Shown here in pieces: positions 11,678 to 58,203 of a stretch of 64,000 bases of DNA. Location of the stretch: contig CBDTUI010000001.1 of NCBI GenBank assembly GCA_965363765.1, positions 26,403 through 90,402 of the forward strand, given 5' to 3'. The notes beneath the pieces are model-generated. The model saw nothing but the letters and a program-made list of their open reading frames with translations, was not told where the DNA came from and made no database searches. Both the position numbers and the translations under genes were made by a program. Origin of the DNA: an uncultured Acidimicrobiia bacterium. Lineage in GTDB: Bacteria; Actinomycetota; Acidimicrobiia; Spongiisociales; JAENVV01. Numbering within the stretch: the first letter of the stretch is position 1; each line of letters starts with the position of its first letter.

Positions 11678-12133
11678 TTAGCCCTTGCGGATCTGTTCTT
11701 CGAGGAAGGCGATCCGTTGGCGAATCCACACCACTGCGCTGTGCGGATCGGCTGAACCCTGCTCGTCGGCGATGGCGTCGATGGCGTTCAGCGTGCCCCT
11801 GACGGAACCCTCGCCGGCCATAGCCAGTTCTATGCCCTGAGTTGGAAACCGGGCCAGATGGGCTCGGAGCCCCTCGAGTTCGCGTTTCATGTCGGCCACG
11901 GAGAGAGGAGCATGCGATCGGAGTATGTCACGAAGGCCGTCGCGTTCCTCCGTCATGGCCGCAAGGGACGCTATATCTCCGGGGTTGGAGCGGGCCTTCT
12001 CTATTTCGCCGGCAAGCTCGCCGAGGCGGCTCAGAATGTCGTCTCGTTTCAATGTTTCTCCCTTGGGATGCCCCGATGGTAGGTGAAGGCCGTCCCGCGC
12101 GTCGGGCCATCCGCCAATTCTGCCCACCGCCAC
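11678..12133 (-). CDS. Hypothetical protein (coiled-coil/acidic). The start is uncertain.
   Basis: ORF with coding-like composition. The track ORF start at 12154 lies inside a palindromic repeat, so I propose GTG 12133 instead. No family recognised. Confidence 0.3.
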   Translation of the reverse strand: MAVGRIGGWPDARDGLHLPSGHPKGETLKRDDILSRLGELAGEIEKARSNPGDIASLAAMTEERDGLRDILRSHAPLSVADMKRELEGLRAHLARFPTQGIELAMAGEGSVRGTLNAIDAIADEQGSADPHSAVVWIRQRIAFLEEQIRKG

Positions 12134-12137
12134 CCGA

Positions 12138-12210
12138 TCTTGGGGCTCCAGCACCCATTATCGGGCGCAGGAACCCAGGGTTCAACCCTGGGTTCGGGTA
12201 GGGGGGGTAG
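12138..12210. repeat. Solo copy (inverted orientation) of the ~60-65 bp palindromic repeat family that is also present as a tandem array at 55759-55947
   Basis: TCTTGGGGCTCCAGCACCCATTATCGGGCGCAGGAACCCAGGGTTCAACCCTGGGTTC followed by a G-rich tail. This is the reverse complement of the unit at 55881-55947. It contains the near-palindrome GAACCCAGGGTTC/GAACCCTGGGTTC. Confidence 0.8.
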
Positions 12211-12220
12211 CCTGGCTCGC

Positions 12221-13642
12221 ATGGATCAGTTTGCACAACGTAGAGCTCAGTTCGCCGAAGCGATTGGAGACGGAGTCGCCATCATTCCGGCGGGACGTGA
12301 CACCACCCGCAACGACGACGTCGACCACGAGTTTCGCCAGGACTCGACGTTCTATTTCCTCACCGGGTTCTCGGAACCCGACGCCGTCGCGATCCTTCAT
12401 CCGTCCCACCCCAGCGCTTCGTACACGCTGTTTGTGCGGCCCCGCGACCGCGAGATGGAAATCTGGAACGGATACCGGGCCGGCACCGAGGGAGCCAAGA
12501 AGGAATACGGAGCCGACGAGGCATATCCGATTGGGGAACTGTCAACCAAACTGAACGACCACCTGATTGGTACCGACACGATCCTCTACCGAACAGGGGG
12601 CCCGCTCGACGAGATGGTTTTGGGGATGATGCAATCGCTTCGGCCGCTCGCCGAACGATACGGACGAACCATCCCCACCCGGTTGGTCGACCCTTCGCCG
12701 ACGCTCGACGAGATGCGACTGCGCAAGTCAGACCCAGAACTGGCTCACCTGCGTAGGGCCTGTGACATATCGGTTCTCGGACACGAAGCGGCCATGCGGT
12801 TCGCCAAGCCGGGAGTGTACGAGTACCAAATCCAGGCAGCCATGGAACACGTCTTTCGCCAGGAGGGGTCACCCCGCAATGGCTATCCATCGATCGTGGC
12901 CTCTGGGCCGAATGCCTGCATCCTGCATTACACCGAGAACGACCGCCAGGTCGAAGATGGTGACCTGGTGCTCATCGACGCAGCGGCCGAATCGGGTCAC
13001 TTCTCTTCGGATATCACCCGAACCTTCCCGGCCAATGGACGGTTTACCAAACCCCAGCGAGCCGTATACGACGTCGTGCTTGGCGCCCATCGGGCCTCGA
13101 TCGGCGACGCAAAAGCGGGCAACACGCATCGCGACATGCACGAAACCGCCAAGAAAGCCATCACGGAAGGACTCATCGACCTCGGCCTACTGCCGCAAGG
13201 TCTCGAAGACTCGCTGAGTATGCACCACTATCGCGAGTACTTCATGCACGGAACCGGTCACTGGCTTGGCATGGACGTGCACGATGCCGGATCGGTTCAG
13301 ATTGGCAATGACTCACGGACCCTTGAGGTCGGAATGTCATTCACGGTCGAGCCGGGCATTTACATTGCGCCAGATCAAGAGGCCGTCGACTTCGTGTTGA
13401 TGGAGTACGACTCATCGGCGCGCTACGAACGGCGTTATCGCATCGGCGCCGAGGCTGCCAAAAAGCTTGAAGAAGAAGAGATGAAGGACGCCCCCCGGGT
13501 TAGCCATGAGATCCCTGCCGAATTTCGGGGAATTGGGGTCCGCATCGAGGACGATATCGCTATCACAGCAGCTGGCCCCGAGAACTTGACCGCCGCTCTA
13601 CCGGTCGATCCCGATGAGGTCGAAGCGATCTGTCAGAACTGA
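12221..13642 (+). CDS. pepP: Xaa-Pro aminopeptidase (M24B family)
   Basis: An N-terminal creatinase-like domain plus the pita-bread domain with HGTGHWLGMDVHD. The start is set to ATG 12221 downstream of the repeat; the track ORF starts at 12083 inside the repeat. Confidence 0.85.
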   Translation: MDQFAQRRAQFAEAIGDGVAIIPAGRDTTRNDDVDHEFRQDSTFYFLTGFSEPDAVAILHPSHPSASYTLFVRPRDREMEIWNGYRAGTEGAKKEYGADEAYPIGELSTKLNDHLIGTDTILYRTGGPLDEMVLGMMQSLRPLAERYGRTIPTRLVDPSPTLDEMRLRKSDPELAHLRRACDISVLGHEAAMRFAKPGVYEYQIQAAMEHVFRQEGSPRNGYPSIVASGPNACILHYTENDRQVEDGDLVLIDAAAESGHFSSDITRTFPANGRFTKPQRAVYDVVLGAHRASIGDAKAGNTHRDMHETAKKAITEGLIDLGLLPQGLEDSLSMHHYREYFMHGTGHWLGMDVHDAGSVQIGNDSRTLEVGMSFTVEPGIYIAPDQEAVDFVLMEYDSSARYERRYRIGAEAAKKLEEEEMKDAPRVSHEIPAEFRGIGVRIEDDIAITAAGPENLTAALPVDPDEVEAICQN

Positions 13643-21619: not shown

Positions 21620-22261
21620 TTGCCGCTTGTGGAACTGACACAAAACGAAACCAGAGTGCTGGGTGCGCTCATCGAGAAGCACATGACCACCCCCGATCAC
21701 TACCCGCTCACGACGAACTCTCTCATGGCAGCCTGTAATCAGACCTCGAACCGCGACCCGGTGATGGAGCTCAGCGAAGGCGAAGCGATCGAGGCGATGG
21801 ATTCGCTTCGAAGCCAGGGACTAGCTCGAACGGTGAAGCGGACCGGGGAGCGAGCCCTGAAACACCTCGAAATTGCCGACGAGGGACTCGAGCTCAACCG
21901 TGAGCGGAAGGCGCTGCTCGGCGTATTGCTGTTGCGGGGTCCCCAGACGAGTGGCGAGCTGCGTCTACGAACCGAACGCTACGTTCAATTGGACAGCCTG
22001 GAAGAGGCCGACCGGATACTCGAATCGATGGCGACCGCCGACATTCCAGTGGCGGTCTTACTTGAACGGGCACCTGGCCAGAAAGAGGCGCGCTGGATGC
22101 ATCTGCTGGCCGGGGAAACTGCTGAGCATGCAGCTCCTTCCACCGGATCGGTCGCTACCGGACAAGTCGTTCCGTCCCGCTTGGAAGCGCTTGAAGCCGA
22201 AGTGTCGAAGCTCCAAGATCGCGTCAGCGAACTGGAATCACGGTTGGAACAGGACCGATAA
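21620..22261 (+). CDS. DUF480/YceH (UPF0502) family protein with a C-terminal coiled coil
   Basis: N-terminus L..E.RVLGALIEKHMTTPDHYPLTTNSLMAACNQTSNRDPVM, characteristic of YceH. TTG start. Confidence 0.75.
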   Translation: MPLVELTQNETRVLGALIEKHMTTPDHYPLTTNSLMAACNQTSNRDPVMELSEGEAIEAMDSLRSQGLARTVKRTGERALKHLEIADEGLELNRERKALLGVLLLRGPQTSGELRLRTERYVQLDSLEEADRILESMATADIPVAVLLERAPGQKEARWMHLLAGETAEHAAPSTGSVATGQVVPSRLEALEAEVSKLQDRVSELESRLEQDR

Positions 22262-22618
22262 GTCAACACTGATTGTCGAGTCATCCGGCAGGCCGACCAA
22301 GTCGCCGCCGTAGTCCTCGAGAGCGAATCGGTAGCTGGCGTTCGGCATGTAGCGGGGGCAATCGGCAGAAACCCCATCGACGCACGGCGCCATGGTGATG
22401 ACCTCCATCAGCTTCCCGTCGCCATCGAAGAAAGCCACATCCAATGGAATCGGAACGGTCCACATCCAGAACGATCCCGAGGCCGGCGTCTCCCATGCGA
22501 ACAACATGGCGTCAACATCACCGAGCGATGTCACTCCCATCAGCCCCTGCGCCCGCCGCGCGCTGTCGTCGGCTACTGCCACCATCAGATCTACGCCGTT
22601 GAGCTGAATGGTGGCCAA
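22238..22618 (-). CDS. DUF192 (COG1430) domain protein. An in-frame upstream lipoprotein signal lacks a canonical start.
   Basis: DUF192 core (GLMGVTSLGDVDAMLFAW...). Upstream in the same frame (22619-22837) the sequence reads GGATRPFLAALLVGLLTSCTSGS plus a Thr/Pro linker, with no ATG/GTG/TTG. This suggests a non-canonical start or an indel. Confidence 0.55.
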   Translation of the reverse strand: MATIQLNGVDLMVAVADDSARRAQGLMGVTSLGDVDAMLFAWETPASGSFWMWTVPIPLDVAFFDGDGKLMEVITMAPCVDGVSADCPRYMPNASYRFALEDYGGDLVGLPDDSTISVDLSVLFQP

Positions 22619-22803
22619 TTCGAAGCCCTCGATATCGCCGGTGTTGATCGTCGTGGCGGTGGACGGCGGATCGGGATGGGTCTGTGTCGTTGTCGGCGCT
22701 GGTGCGGTAGTCGTCGGCCCAGCCGTGACTGTCGTGGTTGTTGTTGAATTGCCAAGAACAACGGGCTCCGCAGGGGAGCCCGAAGTGCAACTGGTGAGGA
22801 GTC

Positions 22804-23682
22804 CTACCAGGAGAGCGGCCAGGAAAGGTCGCGTGGCTCCTCCTCAAATAGGGCGGCGGCTGCCTCGTCGGTCATGTGATAGGTCTCAGCTTCGCCGGGG
22901 AACGTTTCGCTGCGAACGTCAGCGGCATATTGGGTGAGGGCTTCGATGGCCTGGACGCGCAGGTCGGCATACTTGCGAACAAACTTGGCGTAGTGACCGT
23001 CGTGCAGACCCAGGACGTCGTGCCAGACCAGTACCTGACCGTCGCAGTGGACCCCGGCCCCGATACCGATGGTGGGTATGCCGATCTCCTTGGTGATGAC
23101 CTGGGCGACGGTGTCGGGCACGCCTTCGAGGACGATCGCAAAGACGCCGGCGTCGGCGAGGGCTTTGGCGTCGGCGATCATCTCCTTGGCGTCGGCGACC
23201 GCCCGTCCTTGGACCTTGTATCCGCCCATGGCGTGCACCGACTGGGGGGTCAGTCCGATGTGGGCCATGACGGGAATTTCGGCATTGATGATTGCCTCTA
23301 CAACCGGTAGTCGGTTGATTCCGCCCTCTAGCTTTACCGCTTCCGCCCCACCCTCACGGATGAGACGCGAGGCGTTCCGCACCGCTTCGGATGTGGAGAT
23401 GTGATAGCTCATCCATGGCAAATCACCGAGCACCAGGCTGTGGGGCTTGGCTCTCGCTACTGCGGCGGTGTGGTGAATCATGATGTCGACGTCTACAGCC
23501 AGGGTGTGATCGTGTCCGAGCATGGCGTTGGCGACAGAGTCCCCAACGAGGATGATGTCGATGCCCGCAGCTGAGGCGATCGATGCGGAAGGGGCGTCGT
23601 AGGCGGTCACCATGGCGATCCGTTCGCCGCCTTTGCGGGCTGCGATAGCCGGTGCCGTGACCTTCTTGGGTGCGTCACCCAT
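22804..23682 (-). CDS. panB: 3-methyl-2-oxobutanoate hydroxymethyltransferase
   Basis: IAMVTAYDAPSASIASAAGIDIILVGDSVANAMLGHDHT. 293 aa from ATG 23682. Confidence 0.9.
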   Translation of the reverse strand: MGDAPKKVTAPAIAARKGGERIAMVTAYDAPSASIASAAGIDIILVGDSVANAMLGHDHTLAVDVDIMIHHTAAVARAKPHSLVLGDLPWMSYHISTSEAVRNASRLIREGGAEAVKLEGGINRLPVVEAIINAEIPVMAHIGLTPQSVHAMGGYKVQGRAVADAKEMIADAKALADAGVFAIVLEGVPDTVAQVITKEIGIPTIGIGAGVHCDGQVLVWHDVLGLHDGHYAKFVRKYADLRVQAIEALTQYAADVRSETFPGEAETYHMTDEAAAALFEEEPRDLSWPLSW

Positions 23683-23865
23683 GCGTGTGCTCCTGTCTCC
23701 CCACCTCTTCGAGGTTGAGGGATGTGGCGGGTTTCCGGTTGTTGAAAGTCCGACATCCGATGCCAAGTGGTCACCAGTGTCTTTTTTCAGGATAGCCGTA
23801 GCTGACTTAATCCGTTTTTCGAACCACTCCGTACTAGTACTAAATAGATTCTACAGGAGGTTATT

Positions 23866-24651
23866 GTGAGAAAGCTATCGCTATTCGTAATGGCACTGGC
23901 GGTTATGGCCGTATCGGTGCCAGCCGTGGCACAAGAGACGCCCCGCATTCACCTGATTCATGGCATCCCCGACACAGCTGTCGATGTGGAAGCCGGTGGC
24001 GAGAATGTATTCGAAAACTTTCAGTTCGGCGAGACGCAGGATCTTTCCTCGTTGGCAGGTGCCACGCTCGAAGGCTTGACGGTCAAGTTGGCCGGAACCG
24101 ACACGGTTGCTATCGATGCCGGTGATGTTGCATTGCCAGCTTCGGGTAACTACACGATCATCGCTCATCTCACCGCAGACGGTACGCCGACACTTGCCGT
24201 GTTTGAGAATGACACGTCGTCCATCGCTGCCGGTGAAGGCCGTCTAACCGTTCGCCATACCGCTGCGGCTCCTCCCGTCGACGTTCTGGCCAATGGCGCA
24301 GTTGCGTTCTCAAACCTGGCCAACCCTGATGGCGCTTCAGCTGATCTTGCCGTCGGCACGATCTCGGCGACGGTTGTTCCGACCGGAACCACTGAGCCGG
24401 TTGTAATCGGCCCAGCCGACCTTCCGATCGCCGACGGGACGTCGCTGATCGTCTATGCCGTCGGTTCGCTGGATGCTGAATCGCTGACTGTCCTGACTGA
24501 AAGCATCAGTGGTCTTGGTACCGCTCCCGCTGCAGTCAACACGGGCAACAGCCCGGTTGCGACTACTTCGCCATACGTCGTTGCCGGTGGAGTCCTGGCC
24601 GTCGCCATGGTTGGTTTCGCAGCTCGCCGTCGCACAGCGTTCGACAACTAG
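23866..24651 (+). CDS. Secreted DUF4397-like repeat protein with a C-terminal sortase-type sorting signal
   Basis: RBS AGGAGG. Signal peptide MRKLSLFVMALAVMAVSVPAVAQE. C-terminus: ...NTGNSPVATTSPYVVAGGVLAVAMVGFAARRRTAFDN, a hydrophobic helix followed by a basic tail. Confidence 0.65.
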   Translation: MRKLSLFVMALAVMAVSVPAVAQETPRIHLIHGIPDTAVDVEAGGENVFENFQFGETQDLSSLAGATLEGLTVKLAGTDTVAIDAGDVALPASGNYTIIAHLTADGTPTLAVFENDTSSIAAGEGRLTVRHTAAAPPVDVLANGAVAFSNLANPDGASADLAVGTISATVVPTGTTEPVVIGPADLPIADGTSLIVYAVGSLDAESLTVLTESISGLGTAPAAVNTGNSPVATTSPYVVAGGVLAVAMVGFAARRRTAFDN

Positions 24652-24662
24652 GTCCTCCATTG

Positions 24663-24707
24663 AAAGGGGTTGGGGTGCCACTTGGCACCCCAACCCCTTT
24701 TGCTTGC
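24663..24707 (+). terminator. Rho-independent terminator or attenuator hairpin between the DUF4397 gene and the sortase gene
   Basis: Perfect 17-bp stem AAAGGGGTTGGGGTGCC / GGCACCCCAACCCCTTT with loop ACTT, then TGCTTGCTTC. Confidence 0.7.
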
Positions 24708-24710
24708 TTC

Positions 24711-25379
24711 ATGCGCTACCTTCTTCTTCTCTTTTTGGTTGCCGCCACGGTCGCTTGCGCGGGTGAGTCTGCCCCCCCTTCCGTAGCCGCTCCAACGGCG
24801 GCTACGGTCTCACCGACCACGGCCGTAGACGGGCCGACCACTACGACCTCGATATCGACTTCCGAGGCGAATGAACTTTCCGAACTGACCAGACCGCTCG
24901 AGTCGGCAATCTACGATCCCGACGCGTTCTTTCCTGAGTCCACCAACCCGGTCGGTCTTCGTATTGACGCTATCGACGTCGAGTCGCCGGTAATTCCTGT
25001 CGGGGTTCTCGACAACGGCGAAATGGAAATCCCGGGAGCTGCCGAAGTTGGTTGGTATCGCTATGGGCCTTCACCCGGCGAGAGCGGATCAGCCGTCCTC
25101 GCTGCCCATATTGCCTACAACGGTCGTAACGGCGTGTTCCGCAAGCTCGACCGAATGCAAGTTGGCGACACATTTGAAGTTGTTTACGACGACGGTTCGG
25201 TAGGCCCTTTTGTGGTCACCGAGGTTGCCCATTACGGCAAGGCCGCGTTGCCCTTTGACCGGGTTTTTGCCAAAGACGGAGATGCCGAACTTGTGCTCAT
25301 TACCTGTGGCGGGACGTTCAATGAGTCGTTGAGGTCATACGAAGACAATTTCGTCGTATACGCGACACCCTCCACCTAG
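24711..25379 (+). CDS. Class F sortase (transpeptidase)
   Basis: N-terminal TM/lipobox, catalytic His (LAAHIAYNG), TLxTC motif (LVLITCGG) and a downstream Arg. ~220 aa. The start is set to ATG 24711. Confidence 0.8.
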   Translation: MRYLLLLFLVAATVACAGESAPPSVAAPTAATVSPTTAVDGPTTTTSISTSEANELSELTRPLESAIYDPDAFFPESTNPVGLRIDAIDVESPVIPVGVLDNGEMEIPGAAEVGWYRYGPSPGESGSAVLAAHIAYNGRNGVFRKLDRMQVGDTFEVVYDDGSVGPFVVTEVAHYGKAALPFDRVFAKDGDAELVLITCGGTFNESLRSYEDNFVVYATPST

Positions 25380-25407
25380 CTCTCTCTCTCTCTCTCTCTC
25401 TCTCTCT
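25380..25407. repeat. (CT)14 dinucleotide microsatellite
   Basis: An uninterrupted CTCTCT... run of 28 nt directly after the sortase stop and ~75 nt upstream of the VWA lipoprotein start. Confidence 0.95.
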
Positions 25408-25482
25408 GGGTGAGGGAACCGATCGTTGCGTGGTCAGCGTCCGAGGTTGTGAGCCTGCGGGCTCGTGACCAAGGAGAGCACC

Positions 25483-27102
25483 ATGAATCGAAAGCTTTTG
25501 ACCGGAGTTTTGGCAGCGGCACTAATCCTCGGGGCCTGTGCCTCGACCAGCGGAACGAAGACAACTGCCTGGGGGACCGAACCGCGGAGCGGACCGGCTG
25601 ACACGCAGAGTCGGAGTTCCGACCCCTGGGTCACAGACCCGAGCGACGCTCGCGTGACTCCCGATGCCGTGGATTCAGCGGTGGGCGTGTACTCCGAAGA
25701 GCGAGCGGCCAGCTCGTCGAGTCCTGACTTGTATGGGAACGCCGACTTTGTTGGAGAGTCTCCTAACCCGGCCATAGATCCGCTGCGCGACGGATTCTCG
25801 ACCTTCGCCCTCGACGTCGATACCGGTTCCTATTCGATCGGCAAACGATTTGTGGAAGACGGGTATCTGCCTGATCCCGACTCGGTGAGGACTGAGGAAT
25901 ACGTGAACGCCCTCGACTACCACTACCCCCAGCCCGGCAGAGGAGACGACTTTGCCATCCATCTGATGGGGGGCGTTACACCGTTCGTCGCCGACCCCGA
26001 CACGTATTTGTTTCAGGTCGGCCTACAGGCCTTCGACGTCGAAGACGAAGACCGTCCGCACGCCAATCTCACTTTCGTGATCGACGTGTCGGGTTCCATG
26101 AGCAATGACAACAAGTTGGACATCGTCAAGGACGCGCTCGTAGAGCTGGTTGACAACCTTGGAGTTGATGACCAGGTCGGCATCGTTGCCTACGACAATT
26201 ATGCCGAGGTCATCCTCGAACCGACCTCGGTGCGGTACGCAGATGAGATCGTGCGAGCCATCGAGCGGCTCTATCCGGGCGGAAGCACCAATGCCGAGGC
26301 CGGCCTCGTCGCCGGGTACGAACTCGCCGAAGCGGCGTTTGATCGCAACGCCATCAATCGAGTGATACTCGCTTCCGATGGGGTCGCCAACGTCGGCGAG
26401 ACCGACCCCAACGGGATCTTGGCTTCAATTTCCGAAGCGGCCGGAGACGGCATCAATCTCGTCACGGTCGGCGTCGGGATGGGTGAGTACAACGACTACC
26501 TGCTCGAGCAACTCGCCGACAACGGCGACGGGTTCTATGCCTACGTGAACTCGTACGACGAGATTCGCGATCTTTTTGTAACCGACCTGACCGGGACGCT
26601 GTACACCGTCGCCAAAGACGCCAAGGTCCAGGTCGAGTTCAATCCGGATACGGTCCTGTCGTATCGCTTGCTCGGATACGAGAACCGGGCCATTGCAGAC
26701 GACGACTTTCGCAATGATGCGGTCGATGCCGGAGAGATCGGCGCCGGGCACGCCGTTACTGCCATCTACGAGATCGTGCTGACTGAGGAAGCCAGCCGCC
26801 GCGACGAGGTAGCCACCGTGACCATGCGATGGCTCAACCCGAACTCCAACCAGGCGATCGAACTCGACGGACGGTTCACGGTCGGCGACCTGAACGACGA
26901 CTTTGACCGGGCTCCGAAGGCGTTCAAAGCCGCCACCACGGTCGCTGCCTATGCCGAGCTGCTCCGTGAATCGCGGTTTGGACGAGCTATTGACTGGGGT
27001 CACCTTGTGGGGGTGGTCGATGACGTGGCCAGGGATCTCCGTGATAGCGACTTCGATGACTTCTCCGACCTCGTGTATGACGCCTACCGAATTGATAGCT
27101 AG
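25483..27102 (+). CDS. von Willebrand factor type A (VWA) domain lipoprotein, YfbK-like (VWA plus DUF3520-type C-terminus)
   Basis: RBS AAGGAG. Lipoprotein signal MNRKLLTGVLAAALILGAC. VWA MIDAS motif DVSGSM...GGSTNAE. Confidence 0.8.
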   Translation: MNRKLLTGVLAAALILGACASTSGTKTTAWGTEPRSGPADTQSRSSDPWVTDPSDARVTPDAVDSAVGVYSEERAASSSSPDLYGNADFVGESPNPAIDPLRDGFSTFALDVDTGSYSIGKRFVEDGYLPDPDSVRTEEYVNALDYHYPQPGRGDDFAIHLMGGVTPFVADPDTYLFQVGLQAFDVEDEDRPHANLTFVIDVSGSMSNDNKLDIVKDALVELVDNLGVDDQVGIVAYDNYAEVILEPTSVRYADEIVRAIERLYPGGSTNAEAGLVAGYELAEAAFDRNAINRVILASDGVANVGETDPNGILASISEAAGDGINLVTVGVGMGEYNDYLLEQLADNGDGFYAYVNSYDEIRDLFVTDLTGTLYTVAKDAKVQVEFNPDTVLSYRLLGYENRAIADDDFRNDAVDAGEIGAGHAVTAIYEIVLTEEASRRDEVATVTMRWLNPNSNQAIELDGRFTVGDLNDDFDRAPKAFKAATTVAAYAELLRESRFGRAIDWGHLVGVVDDVARDLRDSDFDDFSDLVYDAYRIDS

Positions 27103-36065: not shown

Positions 36066-37481
36066 ATGGCAGACGGCGGCGCGCACGAGCCACCTGACGA
36101 CTCGTACGCGCCGCCGGCGCCTGATTTCCAGCCCCGTTCCAGTTCACGACCCGGCGGGGTTCGCGTCCCTCCTCACAATGCCGAGGCCGAAGAGTCAGTC
36201 CTCGGAGCGATGTTGTTGTCGTCCGACGCAGCCAACACTGTCATCGATCGCCTCTCGGCTTACGACTTCTACGTGCCGGCCTACCAGGCCATTTACGAAG
36301 CGATGGTCGAGCTCTACAACACGAGCCAGCCGATCGACGCAGTCACGGTCACCGATCAGCTTCGCCGCAAGGACGAACTCGACAAGATCGGCGGACCGGC
36401 TTTCATCGCTCGCCTCCAGAATGCCGTTCCCGTCGCCTCACGAGTTGAATACTACGCCGACATCGTGGAGGACAGCGCCCTCCGCAGGAGCCTGATCCGA
36501 GCCGGTGGCGAGATCACAAACCTCGCCCACCAAACTGACGAAGAGCTCGACTATGTAATCGACAATGCCGAACAGACAGTGCTGGGCGTAGCCGAGCGAC
36601 GGGTCGGTGACGGCTTGTTAGAGCTGTCGACGATGCTCAAACCAGCTCTTGAGTCGATTGAGGCGCTCGAAGCGAATGCCGGACAGATCACCGGGTTGTC
36701 GACCGGGTTCCGTGATCTCGACACGATGCTGGCTGGCTTTCAACCTTCCAACCTCATCGTGATAGCTGCCCGTCCTGCCATGGGCAAAAGCGCCATCGCC
36801 TTGAACATCGCCACCAACGTTGCGGTGAATGGCGGCGTCGTGGCCATGTTCTCATTGGAGATGGGAAAGGATGAGATCATCCAGCGGATTCTGTGTTCCA
36901 TGGGCCGAGTTGACTCGATGAAGCTGCGGGCCGGCCAGCTATCGGTAGAGATGTGGCAGAAGGTCACCAATGCCGCCAGCCGTCTGTATCCCGCTCCCAT
37001 CTTTGTGGACGACAGTTCTTATACGACCGTCACCGATGTTCGCGCCAAATGTCGACGACTCAAACGTCAGAAGGGCCGGCTCGACCTTGTCGTGCTCGAC
37101 TATTTGCAGCTCATGCAGGGCCGCAACCGTGAGAACCGGCAGCAAGAAATTGCCGAGATCAGCCGAAACCTCAAGAACTTGGCCCGAGAACTGGAATGTC
37201 CGGTGGTGGCCGTTTCTCAGCTCAACCGTGGCCTTGAGGCTCGAGAGGACAAACGGCCCCGACTAGGCGACCTTCGTGAATCTGGCGCCATCGAGCAGGA
37301 CGCCGACATCGTCATGTTCATCTACCGCGACGAGTACTACAACCCCGACGCCGTCGAAAGCAAAGGCCTCGCCGAAGTGATCGTGGCCAAACACCGTGCC
37401 GGTGCAACCGGGCGGGTGGAAATGAACTTTCTTCCCGAATACACGTTGTTCGCCGATCTCACCCGACACCCGCCGCCCTAA
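36066..37481 (+). CDS. dnaB: Replicative DNA helicase (no intein)
   Basis: N-terminal EESVLGAMLL. Walker A GKSAIALN. 471 aa. Confidence 0.92.
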   Translation: MADGGAHEPPDDSYAPPAPDFQPRSSSRPGGVRVPPHNAEAEESVLGAMLLSSDAANTVIDRLSAYDFYVPAYQAIYEAMVELYNTSQPIDAVTVTDQLRRKDELDKIGGPAFIARLQNAVPVASRVEYYADIVEDSALRRSLIRAGGEITNLAHQTDEELDYVIDNAEQTVLGVAERRVGDGLLELSTMLKPALESIEALEANAGQITGLSTGFRDLDTMLAGFQPSNLIVIAARPAMGKSAIALNIATNVAVNGGVVAMFSLEMGKDEIIQRILCSMGRVDSMKLRAGQLSVEMWQKVTNAASRLYPAPIFVDDSSYTTVTDVRAKCRRLKRQKGRLDLVVLDYLQLMQGRNRENRQQEIAEISRNLKNLARELECPVVAVSQLNRGLEAREDKRPRLGDLRESGAIEQDADIVMFIYRDEYYNPDAVESKGLAEVIVAKHRAGATGRVEMNFLPEYTLFADLTRHPPP

Positions 37482-37496
37482 GCCACACCTGTTCAG

Positions 37497-37545
37497 GCGA
37501 CACGCTTCCTAAGCGACACGCTTCCTAAGCGACCGCTACAGCGAC
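37497..37545. repeat. Short tandem repeat (GCGACACGCTTCCTAA x2, plus degenerate partial copies)
   Basis: Exact 16-bp tandem duplication at 37497-37528, followed by GCGACCGCTACAGCGACACTGC. Confidence 0.8.
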
Positions 37546-37908
37546 ACTGCTCATCAACATGAGGATCGTGACCGGACCCCAGATGCGGCGTTCCCACTTG
37601 CTGGGGGTCGTCAGATTCAGCACGGCGCTCAGTCCGGCAAAGCCGACTACGAACCAGATCAGCGTCTTCGACAGCTCGAACCACTGGTCCAGCAGCCACC
37701 CGGCCCGGACGAGCACCACCCCGGCGAGCGCAGCGAGTAAAACGGCTTGGACAACGGCGGCTCCCCGCATGTGGTGGGGAAACGTGCCTGGATACCGACC
37801 GCCCATGGCGACGTTCCCCCACGGCATTCCGATCGCCAGGCCTAACTGGAAGACGATCGCCAGCCCGGCCAGCGCCAGGTAAACCCAGGCGGCTAGGTCC
37901 AGATTCAT
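37525..37908 (-). CDS. Hypothetical membrane protein (4 TM helices)
   Basis: Hydrophobic 127-aa ORF with coding-like codon bias. Confidence 0.45.
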   Translation of the reverse strand: MNLDLAAWVYLALAGLAIVFQLGLAIGMPWGNVAMGGRYPGTFPHHMRGAAVVQAVLLAALAGVVLVRAGWLLDQWFELSKTLIWFVVGFAGLSAVLNLTTPSKWERRIWGPVTILMLMSSVAVAVA

Positions 37909-54646: not shown

Positions 54647-55159
54647 CTAACCGTTGGTGACGTTGAAGCGGAGGTTGCCGGAAGAATCCGAAACGATGGC
54701 CTCAAAACTACATTTGGCGCCAGAGCTGGTCATCGTCTTCTCGGCGATCGGTTCGGTCGCATCCTCGGAGTCGAAGACCTTGAACACCACAGGCAGGCCG
54801 CCGTCAACGGTGAGATTCTGGCCTCGGTCGGTTCTGACAGGCCCGATGGTCGCCTTCGAGGTCGTGGCTGTCAGCCAGTAGCCGTCGGAACCAGCGATGA
54901 CCGTGATGTCACAACTGGCGTGCCTGGTTGAGATGAGCCCGGCTTCATCGGTGTTGCCAGTCATCTGGATTAGGCCGAAACCAAGCATGACGACGACGGC
55001 CGCGCCTGCGGCGGCCATCACCAGATTGTTGAATCGGTTTCGGCGAGGCTGAAAAGGGACGACTTTGGTTTGCACAAATTTGTGGTCTGGGACTTCGATG
55101 AGGCGCGCTTTGGCGGCCAGATGGCCGCGTAGGCGCTCCTCAAAGTCGGATTCGTTCAC
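54647..55159 (-). CDS. Putative anti-sigma factor (single-pass membrane protein co-translated with the ECF sigma factor)
   Basis: The start overlaps the sigma stop (ATGA). Domain order is ~55 aa cytoplasmic N-terminus, one TM helix (LVMAAAGAAVVVMLGFGLI), then a ~95 aa extracytoplasmic domain. No canonical zinc anti-sigma domain. Confidence 0.5.
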   Translation of the reverse strand: MNESDFEERLRGHLAAKARLIEVPDHKFVQTKVVPFQPRRNRFNNLVMAAAGAAVVVMLGFGLIQMTGNTDEAGLISTRHASCDITVIAGSDGYWLTATTSKATIGPVRTDRGQNLTVDGGLPVVFKVFDSEDATEPIAEKTMTSSGAKCSFEAIVSDSSGNLRFNVTNG

Positions 55160-55707
55160 GTTGCTTCTCCAAGAGATTTCTGGAGTGCGGCGACACCCCG
55201 ATGAATTCGGCTTTTAACGGTCCCCTTGGGAATCCCGAGCGAGTCGGAGATTTCCTCCATGGACCAATCCATGTAGTACCGCAAGACGACCGGGGCCCGA
55301 TACTTTTCGGGTAGTTCTGCCAGGGCCGCGTCGAGCTTTGGCTCGAACTGCGGATCTTCAATATGGGGTTTGTCCGTGACGTAGATCGATGGCAGTTCTC
55401 GTTTTGACCGACGAAGTTTGGTGCGTGCCCAGTTCATGCCAACCCGGTAAACCCAGCCTCCCGGGTTGTCATAGGTCTGCACGTCTGACCAGCGCTGGTA
55501 GGCGCGGGTCATGGCTTCATCGGCCGCCTCGATGCCCAACTCCCGGTTACCAAGAACGATCACCAGGGTGCGCACCAAATGAGGACGTTTCGCGTTGTAG
55601 AACTCTTCAAAAGAGTTCAGCGAGATGCCCTGTTCGACTGTCACGGTTCCCTCCATACGGGGAGCAGACGCATCGTTTGGCTTGTTGGTTCCCAGATTCC
55701 GTTCCAT
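55156..55707 (-). CDS. ECF subfamily RNA polymerase sigma-70 factor
   Basis: Sigma70_r2 (FEEFYNAKRPHLVRTL...YQRW). Sigma70_r4 (LPEKYRAPVVLRYYMDWSMEEISDSLGIPKGTVKSRIHRG). The start is set to ATG 55707; the track ORF runs into the repeat array. Confidence 0.85.
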   Translation of the reverse strand: MERNLGTNKPNDASAPRMEGTVTVEQGISLNSFEEFYNAKRPHLVRTLVIVLGNRELGIEAADEAMTRAYQRWSDVQTYDNPGGWVYRVGMNWARTKLRRSKRELPSIYVTDKPHIEDPQFEPKLDAALAELPEKYRAPVVLRYYMDWSMEEISDSLGIPKGTVKSRIHRGVAALQKSLGEAT

Positions 55708-55758: not shown

Positions 55759-55947
55759 GAACCCAGGGTTCAACCCAGGGTTCCAGCGCCCGAATACGGG
55801 TGCTGAGGCCCCAAGAACAACCCAGGGTTGAACCCAGGGTTCCTACCCCCGTTTTTCGGGGGGTTACAGCCCCGAGAACAACCCTGGGTTGGTGCGTGAA
55901 CCCTGGGTTCTAGCGCCCGGGTATGGGTGCTGGAGCCCCAAGAACAG
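55759..55947. repeat. Tandem array of three copies of a 61-67 bp palindrome-containing repeat (same family as the solo copy at 12138-12210)
   Basis: Copy 1 is 55759-55819, copy 2 is 55820-55880 and copy 3 is 55881-55947. Each starts with the near-palindromes (G)AACCCAGGGTT(C/G)AACCCAGGGTTC and ends CCCCAAGAACA. Copy 2 has a diverged middle (CCCCCGTTTTTCGGGGGG hairpin). Confidence 0.85.
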
Positions 55948-56013
55948 CGCGCGGGTGACAAAAGGTGGGCTGCGGTGGGCTGGGTCGGGACGACGCAGCT
56001 ACCCTTCGGCCTG

Positions 56014-58203
56014 ATGTCTCAGACGTTCGACTTTGCGGGAACCGACGTGATTTTCGTCGAGGGCGATTCGGTACTCACCGCCCTGGTGCGGGGCGGGATT
56101 TACCCGGCCGGTGGGGGAACCCTCTGCTGCGAAGGTGATTGCCCGTACTGCATTGCCACCGTCGACGGCGTCTCGTACGTTCGGACCTGCCAGACAGCTG
56201 CCCGCGAGGACCTGGTCGTCGAACCTCACCCGGCCGACCAGGATCCGCCTCTGCCAGCCGACCAAGGGTATCGGTCCGCGCCCATCGAATACCGCCATGC
56301 TGACCTTGTGGTCGTTGGTCAGGGCGAAAGTGGCCGGATGGCCGTCTACGAGGCTTCGGCCGCCGGGCGAACAGTTGATGCCTTTGACGCCAGTAGCGGC
56401 GAAGAGGTCATCGGGATCTATGACGGTCCGATGGTGATCGTTCGGACACCCGAACGGATGATCCACGTCGAATGTGACGAGATCGTCGTGGCGACCGGTG
56501 CGGCGCAAATCCAGCCAGCCTGCCCGGGGAGCGAACTGATCGGCATTATCACCGGACCTGCGGCGCAGGTACTGGCCACCCAGGGTGTCGAGCTGGGCGT
56601 TGTCGCCGTCGTCGGCCCGCCACCAACAGACCTCGAATGCGTCGTCGCTGTGGGAGAGCTGGTCCGGTTTGAAGGCTCTGACGGTCGACTCAACGCAGTC
56701 GTAACTGTGACCGACGATGGGGAGCGCCGGACCGAATGCGACACCGCAGTTGTCAGCCTGGGGATCTATCCACGTGACGGTCTAGCCCGAATAGGAAACG
56801 GCCTCGCCGTAACCGTCGTCGGCGACGCTGCGTTGCCAGCCACGATTCCTCCCTGTCCATCCGAAGGTGTGATCTGCCCCTGCAACAACGTCGACGTCGA
56901 CGACCTACAAAGCGTATGGGATCGTGGCTTCCACGAGATGGAACTCGTCAAGCGGGCCACCCTTGCCGGAACGGGAACCTGCCAGGGGATGGTCTGCTTG
57001 CCGTACTTGCGGAGTTTCCTCGCTGACCGGGGAGGTGAACTGCAACCGGCGTTCACCGCCCGTCCGGTCGCCCGTCAGTTGACCATCGGGGAAATGTCCG
57101 CCGGCGAACACGACCGGCCCGTACCGCGCACTCCGCTCCACGGAGAACATGTCGCCCTCGGTGCCCGCATGGACCGAATTGGCGGCTGGTGGCGACCGTG
57201 GACATACGGCGATCTGGCAGCAGAATATGACGCGGTCCGGCACAGAGTTTCGATCGGCGATGTCTCGACTCTTGGCAAGATGATCGTGTCGGGTCCCGAC
57301 GCCGAAGCCTTTCTTGAATACATCTATCCCACCAACGTGTCCACCATCAAACCCGGCCGCTCCCGATACGTTCTCATGCTCAACGAGCGGGGATACGTGT
57401 TCGACGACGGCCTAGTCAGCCGGGAACTAGACGGTCCGTTCTCGTTGACGTTCACATCGGGAGGCGCCAGCCACGCCGAAATGTGGATGCGCGATTGGGG
57501 TTCGAGCTACGACGTACGGATGTTGAACCAGACGATGTCCCTTGCCGCCATCAACGTCACAGGCCCGCTGGCGAGCGAGTTGCTCACCAAAGCAGGAGTC
57601 ACCAACCCGCCGCCGTACATGGGCCATGCCGAACTTGAAGTGGCCGGGATCGCATGCAAGGTTTACCGACTGAGCTTCACGGGTGAACTATCTTTCGAGC
57701 TACACCATCCGGTCGACCGATCGGTGGAGCTCTGGCGTGCGTTGCTCGAACTCGGGGCCGAGTACGACATCTACCCGCACGGCCTTGAAGCCCTCCAGCT
57801 GCTGAGGTTGGAGAAGGGTCACATCCTCGTCGGTGTCGACACTGACTTCGATTCGACACCTCGCCGTATCCAGCATGAGTGGGCCTGCCGACTCGATAAA
57901 CCCGACTTCCTTGGCAAAACCGCCGTAGTCCGCACCAACGAGATTTCGCTCGATCGTCTGCTCGTCGGGTTCACCACCGAGCGAGCAACCGTCGACGGTG
58001 CTCTGCTTTACAGCAAGGGTGAGTACTGCGGATATGTCACCTCGGCTGGGTGGTCGCCAATCATTGGGCAAGGAATCGCCATGGCCTGGCTCTATGTCGG
58101 GTCGGATGGCGAGTTGCCTGACGAGGTTGAGATCGACGGCATGCCAGCGGTCCGTGTTTCGTTGCCGTTCTATGATCCGCAAGGCGGCCGAGCTCGTGCT
58201 TGA
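56014..58203 (+). CDS. soxA: Sarcosine oxidase alpha subunit family protein (2Fe-2S Fer2_4 N-terminus, FAD/NAD-binding domain, GcvT-like folate-binding C-terminus). Shorter than canonical SoxA.
   Basis: N-terminal CCEGDCPYC iron-sulfur-type motif. Dinucleotide-binding VVVGQGESG. C-terminal aminomethyltransferase-like domain (HVALGARMDRIGGWWRP...GKMIVSGPDA). The start is set to ATG 56014. Confidence 0.75.
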   Translation: MSQTFDFAGTDVIFVEGDSVLTALVRGGIYPAGGGTLCCEGDCPYCIATVDGVSYVRTCQTAAREDLVVEPHPADQDPPLPADQGYRSAPIEYRHADLVVVGQGESGRMAVYEASAAGRTVDAFDASSGEEVIGIYDGPMVIVRTPERMIHVECDEIVVATGAAQIQPACPGSELIGIITGPAAQVLATQGVELGVVAVVGPPPTDLECVVAVGELVRFEGSDGRLNAVVTVTDDGERRTECDTAVVSLGIYPRDGLARIGNGLAVTVVGDAALPATIPPCPSEGVICPCNNVDVDDLQSVWDRGFHEMELVKRATLAGTGTCQGMVCLPYLRSFLADRGGELQPAFTARPVARQLTIGEMSAGEHDRPVPRTPLHGEHVALGARMDRIGGWWRPWTYGDLAAEYDAVRHRVSIGDVSTLGKMIVSGPDAEAFLEYIYPTNVSTIKPGRSRYVLMLNERGYVFDDGLVSRELDGPFSLTFTSGGASHAEMWMRDWGSSYDVRMLNQTMSLAAINVTGPLASELLTKAGVTNPPPYMGHAELEVAGIACKVYRLSFTGELSFELHHPVDRSVELWRALLELGAEYDIYPHGLEALQLLRLEKGHILVGVDTDFDSTPRRIQHEWACRLDKPDFLGKTAVVRTNEISLDRLLVGFTTERATVDGALLYSKGEYCGYVTSAGWSPIIGQGIAMAWLYVGSDGELPDEVEIDGMPAVRVSLPFYDPQGGRARA

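Follow-up and report, generated by a model that had tools for sequence, protein, structure and literature searches.

The question raised by this locus is whether a repeat whose copy number changes can act as a switch for the surface-protein gene behind it, or whether it is a hypermutable site that the neighbouring genes simply tolerate. In the window (the whole stretch of DNA that was analysed, 64 kb from an uncultured Acidimicrobiia bacterium, with a G+C content of ~60%), an uninterrupted run of CT dinucleotides occupies part of the 103-bp gap between a sortase gene and a gene for a lipoprotein with von Willebrand factor A domains (VWA), and the features at this place are as follows.

23866-24651 (+): gene for a DUF4397 protein with a C-terminal sorting signal; it precedes the sortase gene.
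24711-25379 (+): probable class F sortase gene, whose ATG start matches that of database protein P0121 and whose TAG stop abuts the tract.
25380-25407 (no strand): (CT)14 / (GA)14 microsatellite, perfect and length-polymorphic between assemblies.
25483-27102 (+): YfbK-type VWA lipoprotein gene, with vWF_A, VWA and YfbK_C domains and the lipobox LILGAC.

The tract consists of 14 CT units without interruption (28 nt), which is long enough for slippage. It begins at the base directly following the sortase TAG (25377-25379), in the context ...CCACC TAG (CT)14 GGGTGAGGGAACC..., and ends 75 nt before the VWA ATG. It is the only dinucleotide repeat of at least four units and the longest polypyrimidine run in the 64-kb window, where ~2e-12 such tracts would be expected by chance under a dinucleotide Markov model. 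Apart from the tract, no simple sequence repeat (SSR) was found in the window, and related loci amounting to ~96 kb (160 kb together with the window) contained only the same tract. The original prediction, which had placed a rare and perfect (CT)14 at these positions, within 103 bp separating a sortase stop from the start of a VWA protein, is borne out on each of these points, including the identity of the two flanking genes. An effect of the tract on coding was considered and rejected, as it lies after the sortase stop and before the VWA start and neither frame is shifted; two mechanically called ORFs that overlap the region (25376-25564, minus strand; 25410-25601, plus strand) were likewise set aside as being without support.

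The upstream gene matches the Pfam Sortase family at 74 bits (cutoff 26.6; 9e-21), and its best NCBIfam match is class_F_sortase at 145 bits (1e-42), which is below the 166-bit cutoff, making the class F assignment a probable one. The product of the VWA gene matches YfbK_C (142 bits), VWA (74 bits) and vWF_A (68 bits) in Pfam, all above the curated thresholds. The DUF4397 protein ends in ..VNTGNSP, a hydrophobic/transmembrane segment and RRR, an arrangement that resembles a sorting signal, and it is likely to be the substrate of the adjacent class F sortase, the two resembling a substrate/enzyme pair. The VWA lipoprotein itself is probably not a sortase substrate, since a sorting signal is lacking in it. 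On the 3' side of the VWA gene, the window and the related contigs L001 and L002 differ from one another in gene content, and the gene that follows VWA in L001 is not found in the window. One YfbK-type VWA homologue (P0100) carries an N-terminal PF13490 domain, which we take to be a zinc-finger anti-sigma domain, a hint of a connection elsewhere between the VWA family and ECF sigma signalling.

In all, four assemblies from at least three studies have the tract in exactly this position, and the four alleles, each of them the consensus sequence of an assembly, are as follows.

Window: (CT)14, 28 nt.
L014: CTTT(CT)10, 24 nt.
L016: CTTT(CT)11, 26 nt.
L001: CTTT(CT)11, 26 nt.

Copy number is thus 12, 13, 13 or 14 units, and all differences between alleles are multiples of 2 bp. 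When L014 is aligned over 3,728 nt with window positions 21711-25442, the only differences are a mismatch and a 4-nt gap, each of them within the tract; by our own arithmetic, if two differences were scattered at random over 3,732 nt, both would land in a given 28 nt with a probability of ~6e-5. The VWA protein of the window is identical to P0243, which is encoded on a 117,890-nt NCBI/ENA contig (a homologue, P0242, differs by 2 amino acids), from which it follows that the window and L014 come from essentially one strain, assembled twice. Across lineages that differ by ~5-6% at the nucleotide level (L016 and L001 against the window), the tract is kept at 12-14 units, a persistence beyond what a bacterial microsatellite would be expected to show if it were purely neutral. 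Three of the four alleles are interrupted and the pure one, that of the window, is the longest, in line with the reported lowering of repeat instability by interruptions (PMC7015867). Nowhere else does the locus vary as much as in the tract, and changes by whole units, as seen here, are the signature of slipped-strand mispairing. Whole-unit differences in repeat number between closely related genomes, which are one mark of a contingency locus, are accordingly found here, and the earlier view of the tract as a slipped-strand site is supported: the comparison of copy number between isolates that was proposed with it shows different lengths even for the window and L014, which are otherwise identical over 3.7 kb.

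L014, a 51.6-kb SPAdes contig, stops 35 nt past the tract (L014 3728, equal to window 25442), and another assembly passes through the same site to give the 117,890-nt contig. The tract may be a site at which assemblies break, and the end of L014 so near to it is compatible with heterogeneity there, without being proof of it.

What length variation of this kind could do to the VWA gene depends on where its promoter lies. In an alignment of 10 orthologous VWA upstream regions (alignment A1), the leaders are conserved throughout from GGGAACC to the ATG, and the following elements can be placed in the window.

25414-25420 (+): GGGAACC, the -35-like element of a putative ECF-sigma-type promoter, with an invariant GGAACC core (25415-25420).
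25438-25441 (+): CGTC, the -10-like element of the same putative promoter, invariant.
25445-25470 (+): conserved hairpin GGTTGTGAGCC-TGCG-GGCTCGTGACC, immediately 5' of the ribosome-binding site (RBS).
25471-25478 (+): Shine-Dalgarno sequence AAGGAGAG, 4 nt before the VWA ATG and kept in the leaders.

Both GGAACC and CGTC are invariant in 10/10 leaders, including that of L009, and GGAACC-N17-CGTC (25415-25441) is the sole conserved promoter-like signal, lying wholly downstream of the tract. ECF promoters have been described as having GGAAC at -35 and CGTC at -13 to -10 (PMC3397946). The signal seen here has a GGAAC-containing -35 and a GC-rich CGTC -10, and GGGAACC-N17-CGTC accordingly looks like an ECF-sigma promoter, both its identity and its start being predicted. 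The spacer is 17 nt from GGGAACC to CGTC, or 18 nt when counted from GGAAC; ECF promoter spacers are typically 16-17 nt, and 18 nt is at the long end. If CGTC is taken as -13 to -10, transcription would start at ~25451, which would place the tract at ~-71 to -44, with its end 7 nt upstream of the -35-like element. The looser motif GGAACC-N15-18-CGTC is found twice in the window against 1.68 expected and is not enriched, so the promoter call rests on invariance across species and on the stricter form, GGGAACC-N15-18-CGTC, which is also found twice, against 0.35 expected. No sigma-70-type promoter was found in 24400-25800, and, as the interval from the tract to the ATG lacks the dinucleotide TA, a TANNNT -10 hexamer is not possible in it.

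The hairpin, of 11 bp, stands between the -10-like CGTC and the Shine-Dalgarno sequence. Eight leaders retain its helix, showing wobble changes and 2 compensatory pairs, both of the latter coming from L009. The outer UCC/GGA helix could occlude the Shine-Dalgarno sequence only in read-through transcripts, and the hairpin may serve as a 5' stabilising stem or as a terminator of the sortase operon that lacks a U-tract.

A candidate for the cognate sigma factor of this promoter is encoded 30 kb away in the window.

55156-55693 (-): ECF sigma gene, with a probable ATG at 55656 and the motif GGGAACC-N16-CGTC (55693-55667) in front of it.

The predicted protein (166 aa) matches TIGR02937 at 56 bits, above cutoff, and its closest family is SigE. 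This second copy of the GGGAACC/CGTC motif ends 10 nt before the probable ATG, which suggests that the sigma gene is autoregulated and that its transcript is near-leaderless. As its own promoter motif matches that of the VWA gene, in an arrangement like that of autoregulation, the ECF sigma factor may tentatively be put forward as the one that reads the VWA promoter. Within 54647-55693 on the minus strand, an ORF of 170 aa comes after the sigma gene; its product has a single hydrophobic segment, matches no family and is a candidate anti-sigma factor. The same neighbourhood contains most copies of an 11-nt palindrome, AACCCWGGGTT, that occurs 8 times in the window against 0.01 expected: six copies are arranged as pairs within ~60-nt imperfect repeats (55760-55909), where the ECF sigma gene and ORF 55927-58203 diverge from a shared intergenic region, and two further copies (12172-12194) are upstream of ORF 12083-13642. 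Such an arrangement probably represents either an array of operators or a small repeat element. Elsewhere in the window, at 37497-37537, the 16-nt unit GCGACACGCTTCCTAA is repeated in tandem (2.6 copies, 96% matches), between ORFs 36066-37481 (+) and 37525-37908 (-).

The distribution of the tract among relatives, the closest named of which are Acidimicrobiia MAGs, shows how the leader is organized when the repeat is absent. More distant relatives (70-85% nucleotide identity) are without the tract, and in L002-L008 and L010-L013 (~72-78% nucleotide identity) the TAG is followed by ..CGCCGTGAGTGAGGGAACC, with no repeat. In L015 (90% identity) and L017 (85%), an insert of ~170 nt without a CT tract is found 3' of the sortase stop. 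This insert, between the sortase stop and the VWA promoter, is conserved between the two (L015 1147-1299, L017 2094-2260), and no Rfam match was obtained for the L017 insert. The bases that precede the promoter in L017, GCTCCTTGCTCTCCCTGAG, are CT-rich and non-repetitive, and could be a proto-repeat. L009 has no sortase gene upstream, and the gene found there is different and divergent. Scans of the collection with the conserved leader pattern returned only relatives that have no tract. The order panB(-) / DUF4397 / sortase / VWA is kept in relatives, which shows that the tract junction is not a mis-join, and the existence of tract-less relatives identifies the microsatellite as a recent expansion confined to one sub-lineage.

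The explanation that we prefer, and to which we would give about an even chance, is that the tract is a near-neutral, tolerated, slippage-prone microsatellite whose influence on promoter strength would be graded and modest at most. According to this explanation, the (CT)n/(GA)n tract would gain and lose 2-bp units through slipped-strand mispairing, having arisen in the only unconstrained stretch of the gap, from the sortase stop to the -35-like element; the predicted ECF-type promoter, the short hairpin and then the RBS of the VWA gene would follow it, and a change in length would merely shift the 3' end of the sortase gene relative to the promoter. Relatives with the same leader function without the tract, and the ~170-nt insert is tolerated at that place in L015 and L017, so that no spacing-sensitive upstream site is evident. 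An ON/OFF switch by way of the tract is not supported, and from the arrangement of the leader we infer that there is none.

The tract could instead be a length-dependent upstream element, in which the number of CT units tunes or gates transcription of the VWA gene and produces reversible, heritable states, as at the contingency loci vlhA and nadA; possible routes are the phasing of an upstream protein contact or a factor that binds the repeat. We consider this reading improbable, although it is one that several observations would suit: the tract is polymorphic between near-identical genomes, its predicted position relative to the start of a surface lipoprotein gene recalls vlhA, it has been retained at 12-14 units across ~5-6% nucleotide divergence, and in nadA a TAAA tract sits between distal operators (PMC2791445). 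No conserved site is found 5' of the tract, however, that could be phased with the promoter, as the DNA in that position is coding sequence in the window, the ~170-nt insert in L015 and L017, and different DNA in L009. Relatives that share the promoter do not have the tract, which is moreover the lone SSR in 160 kb, and three of its four alleles contain an interruption of the kind reported to decrease instability (PMC7015867). That the tract is a functional contingency element in the full sense, setting reversible and heritable VWA levels by a vlhA-like mechanism in free-living marine/sediment Acidimicrobiia, would by analogy be conceivable, and we regard it as distinctly unlikely.

The analogy with these systems is worth setting out. 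In M. gallisepticum, the vlhA genes have a (GAA)n repeat ~40 nt upstream of the start and are considered to be active only at exactly 12 repeats (PMC6258824). The present tract is like that of vlhA (pMGA) in being a homopurine-homopyrimidine repeat located ~40 nt 5' of the start (here a predicted one) of a surface lipoprotein gene, in lying upstream of the core promoter and not inside it, and in having a copy number that varies between strains (PMC6258824). In contrast, the vlhA repeat is a trinucleotide with conserved flanks, belonging to a multigene family with dozens of copies in a host-restricted pathogen, whereas the tract is a dinucleotide at a single locus, in front of a predicted ECF-type promoter in a free-living high-GC actinobacterium, and its orthologous loci function without the repeat. 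Another example is the (TAAA)n repeat of N. meningitidis nadA, which is also an SSR upstream of the core promoter and alters the geometry of the upstream DNA, not the -35/-10 spacing (PMC2791445). In that system defined NadR operators flank the repeat, unlike in the present locus, where no conserved upstream site is seen. The oipA and hopZ genes of H. pylori share with the tract the CT unit, a similar range of copy number (6-13 in oipA) and slippage at surface-protein loci, but their repeats are in the coding region for the signal peptide and act by frameshift (PMC4205683), as opposed to the intergenic position of the tract.

A further reading has the tract adopt a non-B structure, H-DNA, under the negative supercoiling that arises behind RNA polymerase, and thereby serve mainly as a fragile or recombinogenic site at a mosaic junction, any effect on transcription being secondary. 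The sequence requirement for H-DNA is a homopurine-homopyrimidine mirror repeat (PMC11667243; PMC7015867), and the tract is a perfect one of 28 bp. A comparison of L001 1-145 with L016 2450-2595 and window 25263-25407 also bears on this reading: L001 and L016 have the tract allele in common, as well as every SNP rightwards of it, whereas over the 117 nt to the left the identity to the window is only 76% for L001, compared with ~97-99% for L016. This drop in identity points to a junction, or a chimeric join, within ~10 nt of the left edge of the tract, and the differing gene content 3' of the VWA gene in the window, L001 and L002 would fit a mosaic locus. It is nevertheless a single junction on one short (2.8 kb) metagenomic contig, L001, which is possibly chimeric, and it coincides with a gene boundary, where breakpoints are tolerated anyway; the chance that this reading is the right one seems to us slim.

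According to the mechanism put forward in the original prediction, the tract separates the elements of a promoter from each other, or a promoter from the RBS, and unit changes would alter that spacing and could switch the gene ON or OFF or grade its expression. The tract is indeed within the 103-bp gap 5' of the VWA start codon and does vary in 2-bp steps, but the invariant -35-like element comes only after the tract, whose length can therefore change neither the -35/-10 spacing nor the distance from promoter to RBS, both of which are constant in all 4 alleles. The -35-like element, the -10-like element, the hairpin and the Shine-Dalgarno sequence are all 3' of the tract, and none of them shifts relative to the ATG from one allele to another. 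With 28 bp, the tract also exceeds the 16-18-bp spacer that separates -35 from -10, and neither a sigma-70-like promoter (24400-25800) nor a TANNNT hexamer 3' of the tract is available to the model. This part of the prediction has not been borne out, and we hold such a mechanism to be very improbable.

There is hardly any likelihood that the repeat or its length differences are artefacts of library PCR stutter or of mis-assembly. Dinucleotide repeats are prone to PCR stutter, all alleles are the consensus of short-read metagenome assemblies, and L014 ends close to the tract; against this, the same site is seen in 4 assemblies from at least three studies with gene order conserved on both sides, L016 and L001 independently yield the same allele, and stutter alone would not add a substitution. 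L014 has a coverage of 16x (as given in its contig name), at which we would not expect stutter to move the consensus by two units. Finally, a role in RNA, in which (CU)n would act as an anti-Shine-Dalgarno sequence in read-through sortase-VWA transcripts and its length would set translation, can practically be dismissed, for while CUCUCU is complementary to GGAGAG of the Shine-Dalgarno sequence when G-U pairs are allowed, partition-function folding with n = 0-20 units gave a pairing probability between the two of at most 0.07 and a shift in Shine-Dalgarno accessibility only from 0.44 to 0.41, and the folding energy of the region was unremarkable (z = -0.9). No Rfam family matched the intergenic region or the window at gathering score, and two Rfam matches in 25300-25560 had E values above 5 and were rejected as chance matches.

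The locus is a polymorphic intergenic SSR, which is a known kind of element. The SSRs of Mycobacterium leprae include dinucleotide repeats that are used as typing markers and are seemingly neutral, and the long SSRs of that species are like the present tract in being actinobacterial, strain-variable and without a known regulatory role. They are mostly associated with pseudogenes (PMC4516964), and, unlike the tract, which is the only one in gene-dense and otherwise SSR-free sequence, they are many and belong to a decaying genome. Actinobacteria in general are not known to have MutS or MutL, and their NucS-type repair is not known to correct slippage indels. To our knowledge, SSR-based phase variation has been documented almost only in host-associated bacteria. 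The examples that we found in the literature for Actinobacteria are short homopolymer indels in M. tuberculosis, and the recent review in which they are treated insists that a mutable site deserves the name phase variation only if its changes are also reversible and occur at high rates (PMC11868660). Judged by this standard, the tract has the repeat and the polymorphism of a contingency locus and does not have the classical placement, being located in neither an ORF, a -35/-10 spacer nor the interval between promoter and operator or RBS.

For the reading of bacterial genomes, this case is a caution that an intergenic SSR should not be taken for a switch before the promoter has been located. 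The practical value of the tract is modest, as a strain marker and a possible site of assembly breaks, while the comparative alignment gives a testable promoter and leader model for YfbK-type VWA lipoprotein genes. For the organisms themselves, the locus indicates that free-living, high-GC lineages, too, can acquire and keep hypermutable sites. Should the tract modulate the adjacent ECF-type promoter, this would place contingency-locus biology in a new phylum-level context and with a new promoter class, and if it were truly a contingency element, a mechanism of the vlhA type would have been met with beyond host-associated pathogens, coupled for the first time to an ECF promoter.
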